A stretch of DNA of 38,460 nt, taken from Occultella glacieicola (lineage in GTDB: Bacteria; Actinomycetota; Actinomycetes; Actinomycetales; Beutenbergiaceae). Every line of letters begins with the position of its first letter. Within the stretch, counting starts at the first letter, position 1. The stretch covers positions 124,001 through 162,460 of the forward strand of contig NZ_SMNA01000011.1 of NCBI RefSeq assembly GCF_004353825.1, read 5' to 3'. The position numbers were made by a program. This document shows positions 18,001 to 24,000 of this stretch, piece after piece.

Positions 18001-21000
18001 CCTGAGCGGCAATCCGCGCCGGGGTTCTCGCACCCTCGCGGTCGCCGAGGCCACCGCCGCCCGGATCACGGCCCTCCTCAACGGACGCGACGGCCTGATC
18101 GGCGCCGCGGGCCTCGACACTGCCATCGACGACCGTGTGATCGAGCTCGCCGACCTCGCCGGGCAACTGTTCGCCCCCGAGCACCCCGAGGCCGACGAGG
18201 CACTCGCCCGCGTCGCCGGATCCGACGTGCTCGTGGTCGCCACGCCCGTCTACAAGGCCAGCTACACCGGGCTGCTCAAGTCCTTCCTCGACCTCTACGG
18301 CGCGAACGGGCTACGCGGGGTCGTCGCCCTGCCCGTCGTGGTCAGCGGCAACCCGGCCCACCTGCTCTCCACCGACATCCACCTGCGCTCGCTGCTCGTC
18401 GAGCTCGGCGCGAGCGTCCCGACCCGTGGCCTCGGGCTGGTCGAGTCCCAGCTGGGCACCGTCGACGACGTGCTGGACGCCTGGTTCACCGATCACGGTG
18501 ACCTCCTGCACGGTGCAGTCACCGCCGGCGCCCGGGCGGGGGCAGCGGCATGACCACCGAGACGCTGAGCACCCTCGAGCGCCTGCTCGCGGAGCAGGAC
18601 GAGCCCCAGCTGAATGCGGACGAGTACAAGCAGGTGTTCCGTCAGCACCCGGCCGGCGTGGCCGTGGTGACGTTCAACGGTCCCGGCACCGATGCCGCGG
18701 CCGCGCTGCCGGTCGGCTTCACGGCGACGTCGGTCATCTCGGTGTCCGCCGCTCCCCCGCTGCTCGCGTTCTCGATCGCCTCGACGTCCTCGTCGTGGCC
18801 CGCGCTGAGCCAGACCGGCACCGTGGTCGTGAACTTCCTGGATGGCCCAGCGGCGCACCTGTCCACCACGTTCGCCCGTAGCGGCATCGACCGGTTCGCC
18901 GACGCTCCCTGGCACCGGCTGACCACCGGTGAGCCGGCCCTCACCGAGGCCTGCGCCAGGGTCCGCGGCCGGGTCGTGCAGCGGATCCCGGCCGGGGACA
19001 GCTACCTGGTCACCCTGCGCGCGCTCAGCGCCGAGATCCCGCGGACCGGCTCACCGCTGGTCTACCACGACCGGACCTACCACCAGATCGGCGGGCACAG
19101 CCGGCTGGGCTGAGTCACGGCCGGCTCAGGACCAGTCCGGCAGGTAGGCCCTCGTGGCGGCGTCGATCGCCACCGAGTACGTCCAGTCGGTGCGCCGCGT
19201 GGAGCCCCAGGCCTGCCAGCCCTGCCGCTCGCTGTGCGCGAGGACCGTGACGCCGTCCGGCACCCAGGGCCCGGCGATCGGGGAGAAGAACGGGATCGCC
19301 CCCACGGCGCCGATGAAGGTCGCCCAGCGCCGGGCGATCTGACTGCGTTTCCACGGCCCGAGGACCACCATCACCCGGCGGTGCTGCAGGTAGTTCGCGA
19401 CCAGTTCGATCTCCCAGGCGAAGCCCTGCCGGACCTCCTTCGGGGTCGCACTCAGGATCACCGCTCGGGCCGTCTGTGCGTACCGGGCCACGTGCTGCTG
19501 CCACTCGTCGTTGCTGAAGCTGGCCCGGGCGGCGCCGATCGGGGCGATCCGGGCCCCGGGCGGCGCGATCGCGATGACCGGCCCGGACATCGACAGCTGC
19601 TGCACCAGCACCTCCTCGAACCGCACCTGCCGGAACAGGCTGAGCGCCCCGAGCAGGCCTCGTCGACGCAGCAGGCCCGGTAGCTTCAGCGAGTCCTCGT
19701 CGAAGCTGCGCAGGTACAGGTAGTGCGGCCGGGTGTCCTGCGCGAGAGCGTCCGCGACCGAGGCGGCGCGGATCCGCCGTCCGAACTCGTCCAGGGCCAC
19801 CAGGAGTGCGATGACGACGAGGAGCACGGGCACCAGCCAGACCTGAAGGTCTCCCGCGAACGCCCGGGCGATCGGGTACAGCGGGGCGGCGAGCGGCTCC
19901 CAGCGCCCCGAGAGCCCGTCAGCGGACGAGACCGGCCACCCGCCGGACGCCCCCGCGTACCAGTTCAGCAGCACGAAGATGACGAGCACCACCGGCAACA
20001 TCCCGTAGGCGATGGTGCTCAGGGCCATGCCCACCCCGCCCCGGGCACCGAGGCTGCCGAGTCGCGCCGGCCGCACGTCCTCCACCGGGTGCGGCGGCAG
20101 GAACCGGTACATCAGGGCGACGATCCCGACGAGCACCGCGAGCGCGACCAGGACGCCGATCGCGGCGCCGGTGTCGCGGGCGACGATCGCCTGCAGCTCG
20201 ACCAGTACGAGGAACCCGGCGAGGCCCCAGACGAACAGGCGGACCCGTCGCTTCCAACGTGCGGTCATCACCACCTGGGTGAGGTCGTGGTACCGGGGTG
20301 AGGTCGATCCCGACCGGTACCGCGGGCGGCGCAGGAAGGCGATCAGGCGGAACGGACCGACGAAGACGATCCAGACCAGCCACACGAAGACGATGGTCTG
20401 GATGAGCACGTCACTGACGTCGTAACGGGGCGACTCCACGTCGTCGTAGCCCTGCCCGGCCAGCGTGTCCTGCAGGTCGAGCACGTACGGGGCCAGTTGC
20501 CCGGCGCACGCGCGGGGGTCCTCGGGGCAGGGCATCCGCAGTTCCACGAGCGTCGTCGCGTCCGCCCCGCTCGCGATCCACTGCCACCTCAGCTCGGCGT
20601 CCGCCCCGTTCCAGCGGACCCGCTCGCGATCGTCGAGCACGGCGACCCCGGTGACCGGCCGGCCCGGGATCCCGCGCCACTCGGCCATCCCGATCGCCTC
20701 GTCGTCGTCGTCGCAGACGGCGTGCCACAGGGTCAGTTCCCCGCCGGCGCCGGGTCCCTGCCAGCGCCACTGCTGCGCGGTGCCGCAGCCGGGCGCGTCC
20801 TCGAGGCTCTCGTCGACGGACGAGGTGACCAGGAACCAGTCGTCGCCGGGGGTCCAGGGTGGGTCCCCGGCCGGCGCCGCGATGGCCGACGGCGTCGCGA
20901 AGGTCAGCAGGACGACGGTCACCAGGACGGTGGTCAGGGTGAGCAACGCGCGCCGGGTTCGGCGCCCGATGGGCGCCCTCACTCCGGTCTCTCGTAGTCG

Positions 21001-24000
21001 TCCGGCCAGACGACGACCACCTCGATGCCGGCATCGCGCGCGGCGGCGACCACCTGCGCGGTCCCCCCGACGCCACGCTCGGCCTGACCGTCCCAGACGG
21101 CCAGCAACAGGTCAGCGCCCTCGAGCACCGCCAGGCCGGCGGCCAGGTAGGCATCCGGGCCCGGTTCGTCGTAGTCGAGCACACGCACGGAATCGGCCCG
21201 AGCCAAGAGGTCCTCGAACGGGTCCCGGAACTGCCCGAGCAGGGACTCGGCGTACCCGGCGGCGGGCAGCACGACCTCGAGGCGCAGGCCGAGGGACAGG
21301 GCGATCTCGGCTGCCAGCTGGTCGGCGCCCTCGGCGAGACTGCTCACGAGGTGGGCCGGCTGCCTCTGCTCATTCGGCCCGGTCGGCCCGGCCGGCCCGC
21401 CGTCACTCCTGCGCGCGTAGGGTACGAGGACCGCGCGCACCCCCGCGGCGATCACGTCGCGGGCGGCGTCGTCGTAGATCCGGTGGCCCGAGACGGCGAT
21501 CCTGACGCTCATCCGACCGACTCGTCCGGGGTCCGGCCGGGCTCGGCGGTGCGCAGCGACTGCCAGGTGGTCGACTCGTCGGCGAGCACGGCCTCGGACC
21601 GGGCCACGAACGAGGGCCAGTCCTGCTCGTCGATGCCTTCCCGGGACCACGCGACCAGGGTGGCCAGGTGGCTGGCCGTGCGGCCGTAGATCTCGTGGGT
21701 CTTGCGGTGCTGGCGCATCTGGTTCCAGGCCCCGAACACCGCGGCCAGTGCGCCGAAGACCCCGAGCAGGTCGAGGTCGATGATGTTCGCGGCCTTGAGC
21801 ACCGCGGCGGCGAGCCCGGCGGCCTCGGCGAGGAGCATGGCGAGGAACCAGCGGTCGGCGAGCGCACCGTGCCGGCGGCTCTTGCGCGCGTACCAGGTCA
21901 TCTGGTCCACGATCCGACCGGTCACGTAGGCGTCGCGCCGGGTGGCGAAGTCCGCCTCGCGCAGGTCGGACATGGCCCGGGTGACGTACTCGAGGTTCTC
22001 GCCGTGCGTCGCCAGCGTCACGCCCAGGTCCGCGATCTCGTCGTTCTGCGCGGACAGGAACATCCGCCGCGCCCGGGGCCCGTCGAGGTCCGGGCCGAAC
22101 GGTGCGCCGCGCACGGCGAAGCGCCAGCTGTCCGCCTTCGCCGACTCGGCGACCGACCGGGCCCGCAGCCAGTGCGACTCGGAGTCCTTGGTGTTGAGGT
22201 AGACGCGCAGCAGCAGGCTGGCCCCGAAACACACGGCGCCGAGGACGGCCACGATGTCCGCCCCGGAGCCCGGCAGCGGGATGGAGAACGTCCCGCACAG
22301 TGCGGCCAGCACGAGCAGCGTGTAGTGGACCCGCATGCCCCGCACGAACGTGGTCTGAGCCTTGACGGCCACATCGTCGGCGGCGGCGACCACCCCGGAG
22401 AGGTCCTCGTCGCGCAGGATGCCCGGCGGGCGCACACTCGGCTCCGACGTCTGGCTCATGCACCCCTCCGGCGATCCATCGACGGCCCAGCCTAATGGCC
22501 GTGAACCGGCGGCGGCGTCAGTTTCCGCGGTAGGGGCGCACCTGCACCAGGTCGTCCCGGTGGACCACCTCGCGGTCGTTGCCGTCCCCGAACCGCTCCC
22601 GGAGCTGGGCCGACGTGGCCCCCATCCGCTCGGGCAGCTCCTCGGCGGCGTAGGCCACCAGCCCGCGGGCCACGACGGTGCCGTCGGCGGCGCCGATCTC
22701 GACCGGGTCACCCGCCTGGAAGGTGCCCTCGACACCGATCAGTCCGGCGGCGAGCAGCGACTTCTTCCCGACGGTCACCGCCCGGACGGCGCCCTCGTCG
22801 ATGATCAGCCGGCCGCGGGTGTGGGCGGCGTGAGCGAGCCATAGGCGGCGCGTCCGGATTCGGCGCCCGGTGGCCGCGAACCAGGTGCCGACGTCGTCCC
22901 CGGCGAGCGCGGCGGCCGCGTTCGCCGCACTGGTCAGGATGACCGGCACCCCGGAGCCGACGGCGATCTGTGCCGCCTCGACCTTCGTCACCATGCCACC
23001 GGTCCCGACGTGGGAACCCTTCGCGGTCAGCTCGATGCCGTCGAGGTCCGCCGGGGAGTCCACCCGGGCGACCCGGGTCGAGCCCGGGCGGGTCGGCGGG
23101 CCGTCGTAGAGGGCGTCCACGTCCGAGAGCAGCAACAGCCCGTCGGCCCGGACCAGGTGGGTGACCAGGGCCGCGAGGCGGTCGTTGTCCCCGAACCGGA
23201 TCTCGTGGGTGGCGACCGCGTCGTTCTCGTTCACGATCGGGATCACGCCGAGCGCGAGCAGGCGCACCAGGGCACGCTGGGCGTTGCGGTAGTGGCTGCG
23301 CCGGATCACGTCCTCGACGGTGAGCAGCACCTGACCGACGGTCCGCGCGTGCGCTGCGAACGCCCGGGTGTAGTGCGCCATGAGGAGGCCCTGGCCCACG
23401 CTGGCGGCGGCCTGGGCGGTGGCCAGGTCCTTCGGGCGGGCGCTCAGGCCGAGCACCGTGAGCGCGGAGGCGATCGCTCCGGAGGAGACCAGGATCACCT
23501 GCCCCCCGGCGGCCACCCGGGTGGCCAGGACGTCCGTGAGCGCCTGCAGCCGCTCGACGTCGAGGCGACCGGCGTCATCGGTGAGCGAGGAGGAGCCGAC
23601 CTTCACCACGATCCGACGGGCGCGCGCCGGATCGGCGAACTCCGACCGGTCGGTGAGGGTCGCGGTCATCGGTCGTCGTCGTCGTCTCGATCGGTCCACA
23701 GTTCGGCGCGGGCCGCGGCCTTGGCGTCCATCCGTTCGTGGAACTCCTCGCGCTTCTCGGCGCGGGTGGGCCGGCTGCGCTCCTCGAGGCGGAGGTCCGT
23801 GCCGCGCGGGGAGGCGAGCAGCTCGGGCCCGGTGAGCAGGGTCGGCTCCCAGTCGAACACGACGCCGCGGGGACCGTCGCCGATCACGACCTCGTCGCCC
23901 GCGACGGCACCGGCCTTGAACAGCTGGTCCTCGACGCCGAGCCGGTGGAGCCGGTCGGCGAGGTAGCCGACCGCCTCGTCGTTGGCGAAGTCGGTCTGGC

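Follow-up and report, generated by a model that had tools for sequence, protein, structure and literature searches.

A membrane receptor with a predicted TIR-like domain, encoded with SLOG and SLATT proteins behind proB in Occultella glacieicola

Thoeris-type systems and the locus behind proB

TIR enzyme domains are of the kind that make NAD-derived immune signals, and a TIR-DrHyd-SLOG clade with SLATT effectors was reportedly predicted by Burroughs in 2015. Comparative genomic work predicts that ADPR-type signals from TIR and SLOG domains act on SLATT membrane effectors (PMC9503650, PMC7159879). The closest described systems are type VII Thoeris, in which a ThsB TIR protein is paired with the SLATT protein ThsH and the signal is canonical cADPR (bioRxiv 10.64898/2025.12.03.692087), and Shaseng, which has two TIR proteins and a SLATT protein (bioRxiv 10.1101/2024.12.27.630466). 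Type IV Thoeris joins a TIR protein to a caspase and uses N7-cADPR (bioRxiv 10.1101/2024.10.24.620036), and cADPR isomers serve as ligands or substrates of RyR/PF02026 domains (10.64898/2026.05.28.727677). In the Thoeris studies considered here, TIRs respond to phage infection and were identified by TIR matches in Pfam or HH-suite close to defence genes.

We analysed a 38,460-nucleotide stretch of the Occultella glacieicola genome (the window) in which three minus-strand open reading frames, g00295 (21509–22459, 316 aa), g00294 (20979–21512, 177 aa) and g00293 (19126–20982, 618 aa), are joined by four-base stop/start overlaps at 21509–21512 and 20979–20982, as the initial annotation had it. 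That annotation placed them as wedged between proB and proA, which is accurate on one side only: the first gene begins 58 nt past proB (22518–23669, minus strand; AA_kinase and PUA by Pfam), which flanks the module upstream, lies outside it and marks an insertion site in this family, but three genes and 2.9 kb separate the block from proA; in between lie a luciferase-like gene, flavin reductase and FMN reductase genes (both on the plus strand) and a SAM-IV riboswitch. The block comes from a soil actinobacterium. GC3 of the three genes (0.92–0.97) resembles that of the flanking genes and their dN/dS is 0.05–0.31, which shows them to be real genes under selection. No PADLOC match was found for any of the three, and neither g00294 nor g00293 has a Pfam family under E 0.1, both in agreement with what had been reported.

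The earlier Pfam matches of g00295 were likewise reproduced (SLATT_3, E 1.8e-30, 106.6 bits; SLATT_1, E 2.6e-27, 95.7 bits; curated cut-off 26.3), and NCBIfam gives SLATT_3 at 1.8e-37. Hydrophobic segments at residues 44–89 and 203–245 correspond to two transmembrane helices per SLATT domain, dN/dS against three congeners is 0.07–0.08, and the protein is predicted to be a tandem SLATT_3 and SLATT_1 effector of the pore type. The assignment of g00294 as a SLOG protein holds at the level of its family: its own best Pfam match is YAcAr at E 0.14, and among 120 aligned relatives (263 were found) 14 match YpsA, 13 YAcAr and 7 DprA at E ≤ 0.01; a profile of the family compared with PDB gives DprA at E 0.045 and YpsA at E 0.22. 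With 177 residues it has no second domain, and as Pfam gives no SIR2 match in any of the three genes there is no SLOG-SIR2 fusion of the type I Thoeris kind. We predict that g00294 is a stand-alone YpsA-clade SLOG that binds or degrades an ADP-ribose-type signal.

The g00293 receptor and its C-terminal domain

g00293 had been described as a protein of no family that could not be modelled, and neither statement survives the use of an alignment: AF2 with 100 sequences reaches pLDDT 91.6 for the full-length protein, and a TIR-like domain emerges at its C-terminus. The predicted architecture consists of a signal peptide, an outer domain (approximately residues 37–180, 20443–20874), five transmembrane helices indicated by hydropathy and model helices (approximately residues 188–402, 19777–20421) and the TIR-like domain (approximately residues 417–618, 19129–19734), all on the minus strand. 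By hydropathy there are six hydrophobic segments, one of them the signal peptide; the odd number of transmembrane helices would place the TIR-like domain in the cytoplasm, and in 161 of 170 homologues a transmembrane segment lies no more than 60 residues ahead of it.

The outer domain model has an alpha-beta fold, and its VIA matches include TM1622 (Z 8.5, rmsd 3.7, 115 aligned), TiME (Z 8.3, rmsd 3.6, 124 aligned) and the extracellular sensor domain of PknH (Z 8.3, rmsd 3.7, 126 aligned); its Foldseek matches are weak (E 0.03–0.05). Cysteines 66, 90, 152 and 159 are conserved in 73–81 of the 100 alignment rows and probably form two disulfides. At dN/dS 0.25–0.31 the outer and transmembrane parts evolve about 4–5 times faster than the TIR-like domain (0.05–0.07) and SLATT, both of which match proB in constraint (0.05–0.08 against 0.09–0.12). 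The initial annotation's view of g00293 as an outward-facing sensor is supported, although it missed the probable signal-making role of the C-terminal domain. The layout of outer sensor, membrane anchor and cytoplasmic TIR is like that of Toll-like receptors, an analogy of arrangement that implies no common descent; in contrast to these, g00293 is bacterial, lacks leucine-rich repeats and has five helices rather than one.

Modelled alone (AF2 pLDDT 92.2), the C-terminal domain has the TIR domain of RPS4 as its top VIA match (Z 10.0, rmsd 3.0, 134 aligned), and TIR or SEFIR domains account for five of the top six and 21 of the 50 rows; the full-length model repeats the TIR result at Z 9.4. The correspondence to a flavodoxin-like five-stranded alpha/beta TIR fold is moderate, with an XdhC-like protein at Z 9.6 in a near-tie (within 1) and no TIR listed by Foldseek, and sequence identity to TIR domains is 5–14%. 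ThsA-SLOG and MilB each reach Z 8.8. In profile comparison, hhalign against 14 TIR_2 domains gives a probability of 85.4 (E 5.9e-6) with E524 in register with the TIR glutamate, against 0.14 and 0.3 for the sister DrHyd/NDT and SLOG branches (the 0.14 from four NDT-like sequences), although four-sequence TIR subsets themselves scored 1.8–82%, making the four-sequence NDT control weak; in further controls SLOG against TIR gave 1.2 and receiver domains 1.5. E524 (codon 19411–19413) lies in the helix after strand 3, where a catalytic glutamate is expected, and neither E524 nor W494 varies in the comparisons made (150 of 150 and 41 of 41). The domain is beyond the curated TIR models (PF01582, PF13676, PF08937 and PF10137); Pfam gives no match for the whole of g00293 at E ≤ 1 or for the domain alone at E ≤ 0.05, and no TIR match in 56 homologues at E ≤ 0.01. 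We conclude that the domain very probably has a TIR-clan fold and, by analogy with TIR enzymes, consider it likely to be an enzyme whose substrate is NAD+ or a related nucleotide. The domain family is large (4,801 clusters when grouped at 50% identity) and, if E524 is catalytic, would add to the TIR domains an unannotated branch that a Thoeris survey based on Pfam and HH-suite would, judging from its methods, probably miss.

It is very unlikely, in our estimation, that the domain is instead another Rossmann-type enzyme of metabolic function, DrHyd/NDT-like or CoaB-like, and that the grouping of the three genes reflects a shared insertion hotspot. Foldseek does favour CoaB domains (best hits E 8.3e-4, rmsd 11), MilB and NDTs score Z 8.0–8.8 in VIA, and the glycine that precedes E524 by four residues is reminiscent of the NDT motif, but the CoaB alignments have rmsd 10–12 and TIR is preferred in the profile comparison. 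As for a hotspot, the relatives G011, G017, G004 and G028 carry other genes at this site behind proB, but in 6 of 38 receptor loci surveyed the trio is found away from proB, in another order and at unrelated sites, which also runs counter to the fixed place beside proB that had been described.

Partner genes of the receptor and of SLOG

Among 61 genomes the receptor is present in 16, SLOG in 13 and SLATT in 8, and the order of the trio is kept in three of three congeners, where the initial annotation had two. Recurrence of the trio in a second TIR clade, with a permuted order, makes the functional link between the three genes stronger than earlier shown; the clades amount to roughly two independent observations. 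SLATT lies beside the receptor in 8 of the 38 loci and a 4TM-RyR protein in 2, and a relative of the receptor domain is followed by caspase and SLOG genes at L100/L102 (one sequence); a direct TIR-SLATT junction is present in six other loci, with SLATT_3 and SLATT_1 confirmed in all three scanned. The partners thus swap among protein types tied in the literature to ADPR signals. In genome G000 there is no further TIR_2 match able to feed SLATT.

No SLOG, SLATT or RyR gene is present within up to 7 kb at 23 of the 38 receptor loci, five receptor paralogues stand alone, and tandem copies at L176 have no partners. Such loci, and the caution of the Thoeris survey that a TIR lacking verification may be an effector that depletes NAD (10.64898/2025.12.03.692087), are consistent with g00293 acting as sensor and effector in one protein, its TIR-like domain depleting NAD+ and SLATT and SLOG being optional and answering by-product ADPR. 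We regard this as unlikely, given that the receptor is tightly coupled, in most cases through overlapping genes, to three different candidates for the receiver, and that it occupies a slot equivalent to that of ThsB in caspase operons.

The initial annotation proposed that SLOG gates the SLATT pore. The two genes are adjacent in both gene orders, and SLOG-SLATT fusions, reportedly described by Burroughs in 2015, would make the pair a split form in which SLOG binds and gates SLATT and g00293 is a non-enzymatic sensor. This now seems improbable: four genomes keep SLOG and the receptor without a SLATT match, and of 80 SLOG-family loci none carries SLATT and 18 show a caspase gene directly upstream. 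Type VII SLATT effectors, moreover, work with TIR and without SLOG, and a non-enzymatic g00293 leaves the invariant glutamate within its TIR-like fold to be accounted for. Seven of the 18 caspase-SLOG loci sit behind a gene with a Pfam ThsB_TIR match, in the slot matching that of the receptor. As the receptor precedes RyR or caspase genes elsewhere and the SLOG family follows ThsB-caspase operons, SLOG looks like an accessory of TIR operons rather than a SLATT gate, and its recurrence behind ThsB-caspase and TIR-SLATT operons offers the stand-alone protein a role that is open to experiment.

Comparison with Thoeris and a proposed mechanism

As in type VII Thoeris and Shaseng, a TIR-fold gene with a catalytic-type glutamate shares an operon with a SLATT effector, here as overlapping co-directional genes. 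The locus differs from both in that the TIR is beyond reach of any Pfam TIR model and forms the tail of a five-helix receptor that also has a signal peptide and an outer sensor domain, that a free SLOG gene is present and the effector is a tandem SLATT_3 and SLATT_1 protein, and that it lacks defence-island context and is described here from sequence and models. Types I (ThsB with the SIR2-SLOG protein ThsA) and III (TIRs with a SLOG effector) also combine TIR with SLOG, the known 3'cADPR receptor, whereas g00294, of the YpsA clade, stands alone, fused neither to SIR2 nor to any other effector, and its kind is found behind different effectors. The ThsB-caspase-SLOG loci and L100/L102 recall type IV Thoeris, although the window contains no caspase and a third SLOG gene goes unmentioned in the available part of the type IV description (10.1101/2024.10.24.620036). 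Neither the g00293 family nor the three-gene form is found in the available portions of the work on predicted TIR-DrHyd-SLOG/SLATT systems (PMC9503650, PMC7159879).

The three genes look like a putative alarm circuit of a surface receptor with a previously unrecognised TIR-like domain, a small nucleotide-binding protein and a membrane pore. The earlier view of a linked, three-part, nucleotide-centred membrane module without a PADLOC match stands, while the abortive-infection role proposed with it is a hypothesis and the surroundings of the loci do not form defence islands; g00293 is a probable signal-making enzyme and the module is therefore better seen as a variant of Thoeris than as a new class; on balance we lean towards a receptor-type variant of Thoeris-style, type VII-like TIR signalling. 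g00293 would cross the membrane and expose its PknH-like, disulfide-bonded domain on the outside, and an envelope cue (for instance wall damage, or a component of a phage or competitor) would cluster the receptors, whose TIR-like domains, by analogy with TIR chemistry, would then cleave NAD+ through E524 to an ADP-ribose isomer. This signal would activate the tandem SLATT protein, which would oligomerise and breach the membrane, the mode of action put forward for type VII Thoeris; we give a TIR-derived signal acting on SLATT somewhat better than an even chance. SLOG, the shared accessory, may bind or hydrolyse the signal; its most likely role would be to set a threshold that guards against leaky activation. 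Phage infection is a plausible trigger, to which we give rather less than an even chance, and if E524 is catalytic the receptor could sense surface events before or without DNA entry. More tentatively, g00293 might be the first bacterial protein of Toll-like-receptor layout to signal enzymatically from outside to inside, its sensor switching on a TIR that makes an ADP-ribose-derived messenger, and might found a Pfam-invisible TIR family of thousands of clusters wired interchangeably to SLATT, RyR and caspase effectors, with free SLOG as a general threshold-setter.

A non-immune alternative with the same chemistry, close to the housekeeping role once raised, is an envelope or environment sensor, co-transcribed with obgE-proB, whose ADPR-type messenger would open a SLATT channel under regulation and without killing the cell. 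Several observations are consistent with this. PADLOC on 118 proteins from 16 loci (a small sample, about 5 kb on each side) gave eight matches, all to generic folds except the L100 caspase, with no defence-island context and no enrichment beside known defence genes of the kind used as defence score in the Thoeris survey. No match was found in the phage, plasmid and IMG/VR collections, and a consensus scan gave no terminator-like site between proB and SLATT. The dS of the module genes resembles that of the flanks in congeners and so indicates vertical inheritance within the genus, under strong purifying selection, and the outer domain resembles the PknH sensor. We nonetheless consider such a role distinctly unlikely, weakened as it is by the patchy presence of all three genes, by their unrelated sites in other families, by the RHS/SUKH surroundings at L197, and by pseudogenes in G004 and G028, the latter having lost the receptor from the proB site and retaining a SLOG gene with an in-frame stop.

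A SLATT–SLOG–receptor operon downstream of proB

Three minus-strand open reading frames, encoding proteins of 316 aa (g00295; window positions 21509–22459), 177 aa (g00294; 20979–21512) and 618 aa (g00293; 19126–20982), are linked by four-base stop/start overlaps and form an operon. We reproduced with Pfam the matches of the 316-aa protein to SLATT_3 (1.8e-30) and SLATT_1 (2.6e-27); the 177-aa and 618-aa proteins have no Pfam match under E 0.1, and PADLOC gave no match to any of the three, all as in the initial annotation. Its placement of the trio between proB and proA is accurate on one side only: the block begins 58 nt after proB, but a gap of 2.9 kb lies before proA, containing genes for a flavin reductase and an FMN reductase and a minus-strand SAM-IV riboswitch (17620–17735) upstream of a luciferase-like gene (16299–17339). 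The GC3 of the trio (0.92–0.97) is similar to that of obgE, proB and proA, and a consensus scan found no promoter-like site there. The nearby nadD was rejected as NAD-related context, being part of a conserved proA–nadD block.

Elsewhere in the window, positions 4000–11289 have a lower GC content (0.60–0.68) and include an integrase fragment (9865–10425) adjoining a tRNA gene (11217–11289); this is probably an island remnant. A 721-aa plus-strand reading frame at 26988–29153 has a hydrophobic C-terminal part and no Pfam or NCBIfam family, and its position is kept in relatives.

The g00293 protein and its TIR-like domain

The C-terminal domain of g00293 (residues 395–618) is predicted to have a TIR-like fold. 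A search of 1.84 billion 50%-identity clusters returned 4,801 representatives at E<=0.001 and 1,091 at 1e-10, and the closest named relatives are from Occultella species (96–97% identity). W494 and E524 are invariant, and R425, F427 and D430 nearly so, in an alignment of 150 members. AlphaFold2 modelled the domain on the family alignment with a pLDDT of 92.2, and structural comparison by VIA with 48,161 solved chains ranks the TIR domain of RPS4 first (Z 10.0, rmsd 3.0, 134 aligned). Counted from their titles, TIR or SEFIR domains make up five of the top six and 21 of the best 50 matches, the same 50 including five MilB/NDT-type and three SLOG-type entries. In profile comparison a TIR_2 profile (14 domains, one of them from locus L148) matches the domain with a probability of 85.4 (E 5.9e-6), and E524 falls on the conserved TIR glutamate. 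The controls gave 1.2 for SLOG against TIR, and 0.3, 1.5 and 0.14 for the g00293 domain against SLOG, 14 receiver domains and four NDT-like sequences respectively; the NDT control is weak, since six random four-sequence TIR subsets scatter from 1.8 to 82 against the same domain.

TIR domains are not among the Foldseek matches of the domain, which we counted against the TIR reading; the identity that Foldseek preferred, CoaB, was set aside, with an rmsd of 10–12 over 220–260 columns. Curated TIR models gave no match to the domain, Pfam found no TIR in 56 longer or distant homologues (WD40 repeats were found in one), PDB sequence searches with the domain or its alignment returned nothing useful, and the ESM Atlas yielded unnamed clusters and no named match. 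An XdhC-like protein ties with the RPS4 TIR domain in structural comparison (Z 9.6). The Foldseek result, on one side, and the profile comparison, on the other, bear on the alternative that the domain belongs to an unrelated Rossmann enzyme, which we regard as very improbable.

The full-length model of g00293 (pLDDT 91.6, 100 sequences) begins with a signal peptide, followed by an outer domain, then five transmembrane helices (from hydropathy) and finally the TIR-like domain (Z 9.4). The outer domain scores Z 8.3–8.5 against TM1622, TiME and the extracellular sensor domain of PknH, with Foldseek E values of only 0.03–0.05; this moderate match predicts a PknH-sensor-type fold and does not indicate the ligand. 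Four cysteines of the outer domain are conserved in 73–81 of 100 rows, and a transmembrane segment immediately precedes the TIR-like domain in 161 of 170 homologues. We infer an outside-in topology because the protein combines a signal peptide with an odd number of helices. The TIR-like core and SLATT are tightly constrained (dN/dS of 0.05–0.07 and 0.07–0.08 among three congeners, compared with 0.09–0.12 for proB) and the sensor side is freer (0.25–0.31 for the outer and transmembrane parts, and 0.25–0.30 for SLOG). These comparisons give no sign of positive selection in the trio, and its dS is similar to that of the flanks, somewhat higher for SLOG.

Recurrence of the trio and exchange of partners

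Among 61 related genomes, 16 have matches to the receptor (the g00293 family), 13 to SLOG and eight to SLATT. The order proB–SLATT–SLOG–receptor is found in the source genome and G001–G003, G031 and G033 (receptor cut by contig end), and G034 is consistent with it across a contig break. G022, G026, G027 and G035 have proB–SLOG–receptor and no SLATT match to the g00295 query. In G011 and G017 the receptor is the sole member near proB and is separated from it by other genes, and five receptor paralogues stand alone. G028 has an in-frame stop in SLOG and no receptor at the proB site, and G004 retains a remnant. In the source genome neither a TIR_2 match nor another copy of the receptor domain or of SLOG was found.

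Scanning species genomes for a single peptide pattern gave 38 receptor loci, a sample that favours close relatives and overlaps in part with the 61-genome set: eight with SLATT and SLOG, four with SLOG only, one with SLOG at a contig end, two with a co-directional 4TM-RyR gene and 23 with none of these. Six of the eight, including those of Naasia, Salinibacterium and two Cryobacterium, have the order receptor–SLATT–SLOG at sites unrelated to proB; their identities to the window are 30–39% for SLATT, 41–53% for SLOG and 42–48% for TIR, and the N-terminal parts of these receptors are about 23–26% identical to g00293 where alignable. When 39 domains were placed in a midpoint-rooted FastTree, the trios separated into two clades, and members without partners lie both between these clades and inside them. 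We count this as about two independent observations; the module is either ancient and frequently reduced, or was put together on two occasions. The partner-less loci and, in the other direction, the tight coupling to SLATT, RyR-domain and caspase genes bear on the possibility that the receptor is self-contained and drains NAD, which we consider unlikely. Receptors are rare in the genome samples, in which only 8–9 candidates per genome were scored and distant members may escape: two of 300 genomes sampled elsewhere in the phylum have one, as do two of 350 sampled from the rest of the Naasia family; plasmids, phages and IMG/VR gave no match.

The RyR-domain genes (L185:2860–4830 and L189:7792–10209) directly follow the receptor and encode membrane proteins with about four N-terminal transmembrane helices, 29% identical to each other; a TIR_2 gene lies on the opposite strand at L185. 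Two receptor genes are in tandem at L176:2952–7657, with neither SLOG nor SLATT nearby.

The best 120 of 263 relatives of g00294 were aligned, and at E<=0.01 these include 14 matches to YpsA, 13 to YAcAr and seven to DprA; the family profile has weak DprA and YpsA matches in the PDB. In a metagenome scan for this family, none of the best 80 of 465 loci, many of them short, has a SLATT gene (two queries). At 18 of these 80 (17 distinct) a caspase gene ends 0–23 nt before the SLOG match, and seven of the 18 also have a gene matching Pfam ThsB_TIR ahead of the caspase (L088, L099, L103, L106, L114, L118 and L130; for example L099:5232–7364). These operons are like type IV Thoeris, in which the caspase is reported to be bound by N7-cADPR (10.1101/2024.10.24.620036), with an extra g00294-family SLOG gene. 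At L100 and L102 (one sequence) a g00293-type domain protein occupies the ThsB_TIR slot; its open frame of about 1,200 aa has a C-terminal extension rich in beta structure, and the caspase and SLOG genes come next (L100:955–6100). Seven further caspase–SLOG loci have no same-strand TIR just upstream of the caspase (5 ORFs from 4 loci), and therefore caspase–SLOG also exists without an adjacent TIR. Among 83 scanned SLOG neighbours (82 of 110 called, those dropped being mostly short, plus the L100 receptor), the upstream genes include eight for XRE-HTH proteins of about 400 aa (L081, L085, L098, L111, L123, L147, L150 and L156) and three for flavoproteins (L079, L095 and L104), which suggests another conserved unit.

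Because its neighbours are swapped and SLATT is lacking at the scanned SLOG loci, the g00294 family appears to be an accessory that moves among several conflict-type operons, frequently TIR operons, rather than a partner dedicated to SLATT. These loci, set beside the joint recurrence of SLOG and SLATT in the trios, bear on the initial proposal that SLOG gates the SLATT pore directly, which with a non-enzymatic sensor we now hold to be improbable. In L174:8633–10411 the SLOG frame continues into aminotransferase-like sequence (593 aa; identified by eye), through fusion or a lost stop. A SLOG relative at L203 (G042:C98:10000–28000) has three TIR_2 genes and one TPR gene as neighbours, and the genome that carries it also contains broken receptor copies.

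A candidate signalling scheme and its relation to known systems

In the scheme that we cautiously favour, a surface cue would cluster the receptor, its TIR-like domains would make an ADPR isomer from NAD+, the tandem SLATT protein would oligomerise and cause a membrane leak, and SLOG would bind or remove the signal. The receptor's architecture, the TIR-like fold with its invariant glutamate, the operon layout, its recurrence and the exchange of partners are results of computation, and the signalling steps are inferred. Published work describes SLATT as an ADPR-regulated effector and a TIR-DrHyd-SLOG clade (PMC9503650, PMC7159879), a YpsA clade tied to NAD/ADPR (PMC6459960), phage PF02026 RyR domains that cleave or hold cADPR isomers (10.64898/2026.05.28.727677), TIR with SLATT and no SLOG in Shaseng (10.1101/2024.12.27.630466), and TIR with SLATT and cADPR in type VII Thoeris (10.64898/2025.12.03.692087). 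The trio may work like type VII Thoeris. In the type VII source, TIR clusters were defined with six Pfam models, or with HH-suite at more than 90%, and with a defence score exceeding 0.4; the trio has neither a curated TIR model match nor defence-island enrichment, and we therefore do not file it as type VII. A related effector class may be listed in Figure 1C or Table S1 of that work, and the term '4TM' is absent from its main text. Membrane TIR proteins as such are not new, since some E. coli TIR defence systems are described as having transmembrane domains (PMC11350192). Literature other than subscription papers and bioRxiv supplements yielded nothing on this receptor family or on a PknH-like membrane TIR receptor. 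The trio may represent an outside-in family of bacterial TIR receptors with swappable effectors, a reading that we think less likely than not.

The sampled receptor neighbourhoods are not defence islands: of 150 listed proteins PADLOC was run on 118, drawn from 16 loci (those dropped being mostly housekeeping genes of proB loci), and it matched eight, namely a helicase, three ABC-type ATPases, a HIT protein, a deaminase, a glycosidase and the L100 caspase. These neighbourhoods, and on the other side the patchy presence of the genes and the pseudogenes in G004 and G028, bear on a non-lethal role in envelope signalling, which seems to us unlikely. Within the scheme of receptor clustering and SLATT leak, phage is a conceivable trigger, on which we place somewhat less confidence than on the scheme itself. 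A PADLOC 'ThsC' beside the Kribbella receptor was rejected as an ordinary HIT gene adjoining thrS. One locus adjoins YD-repeat, SUKH and AlbA_2 genes.
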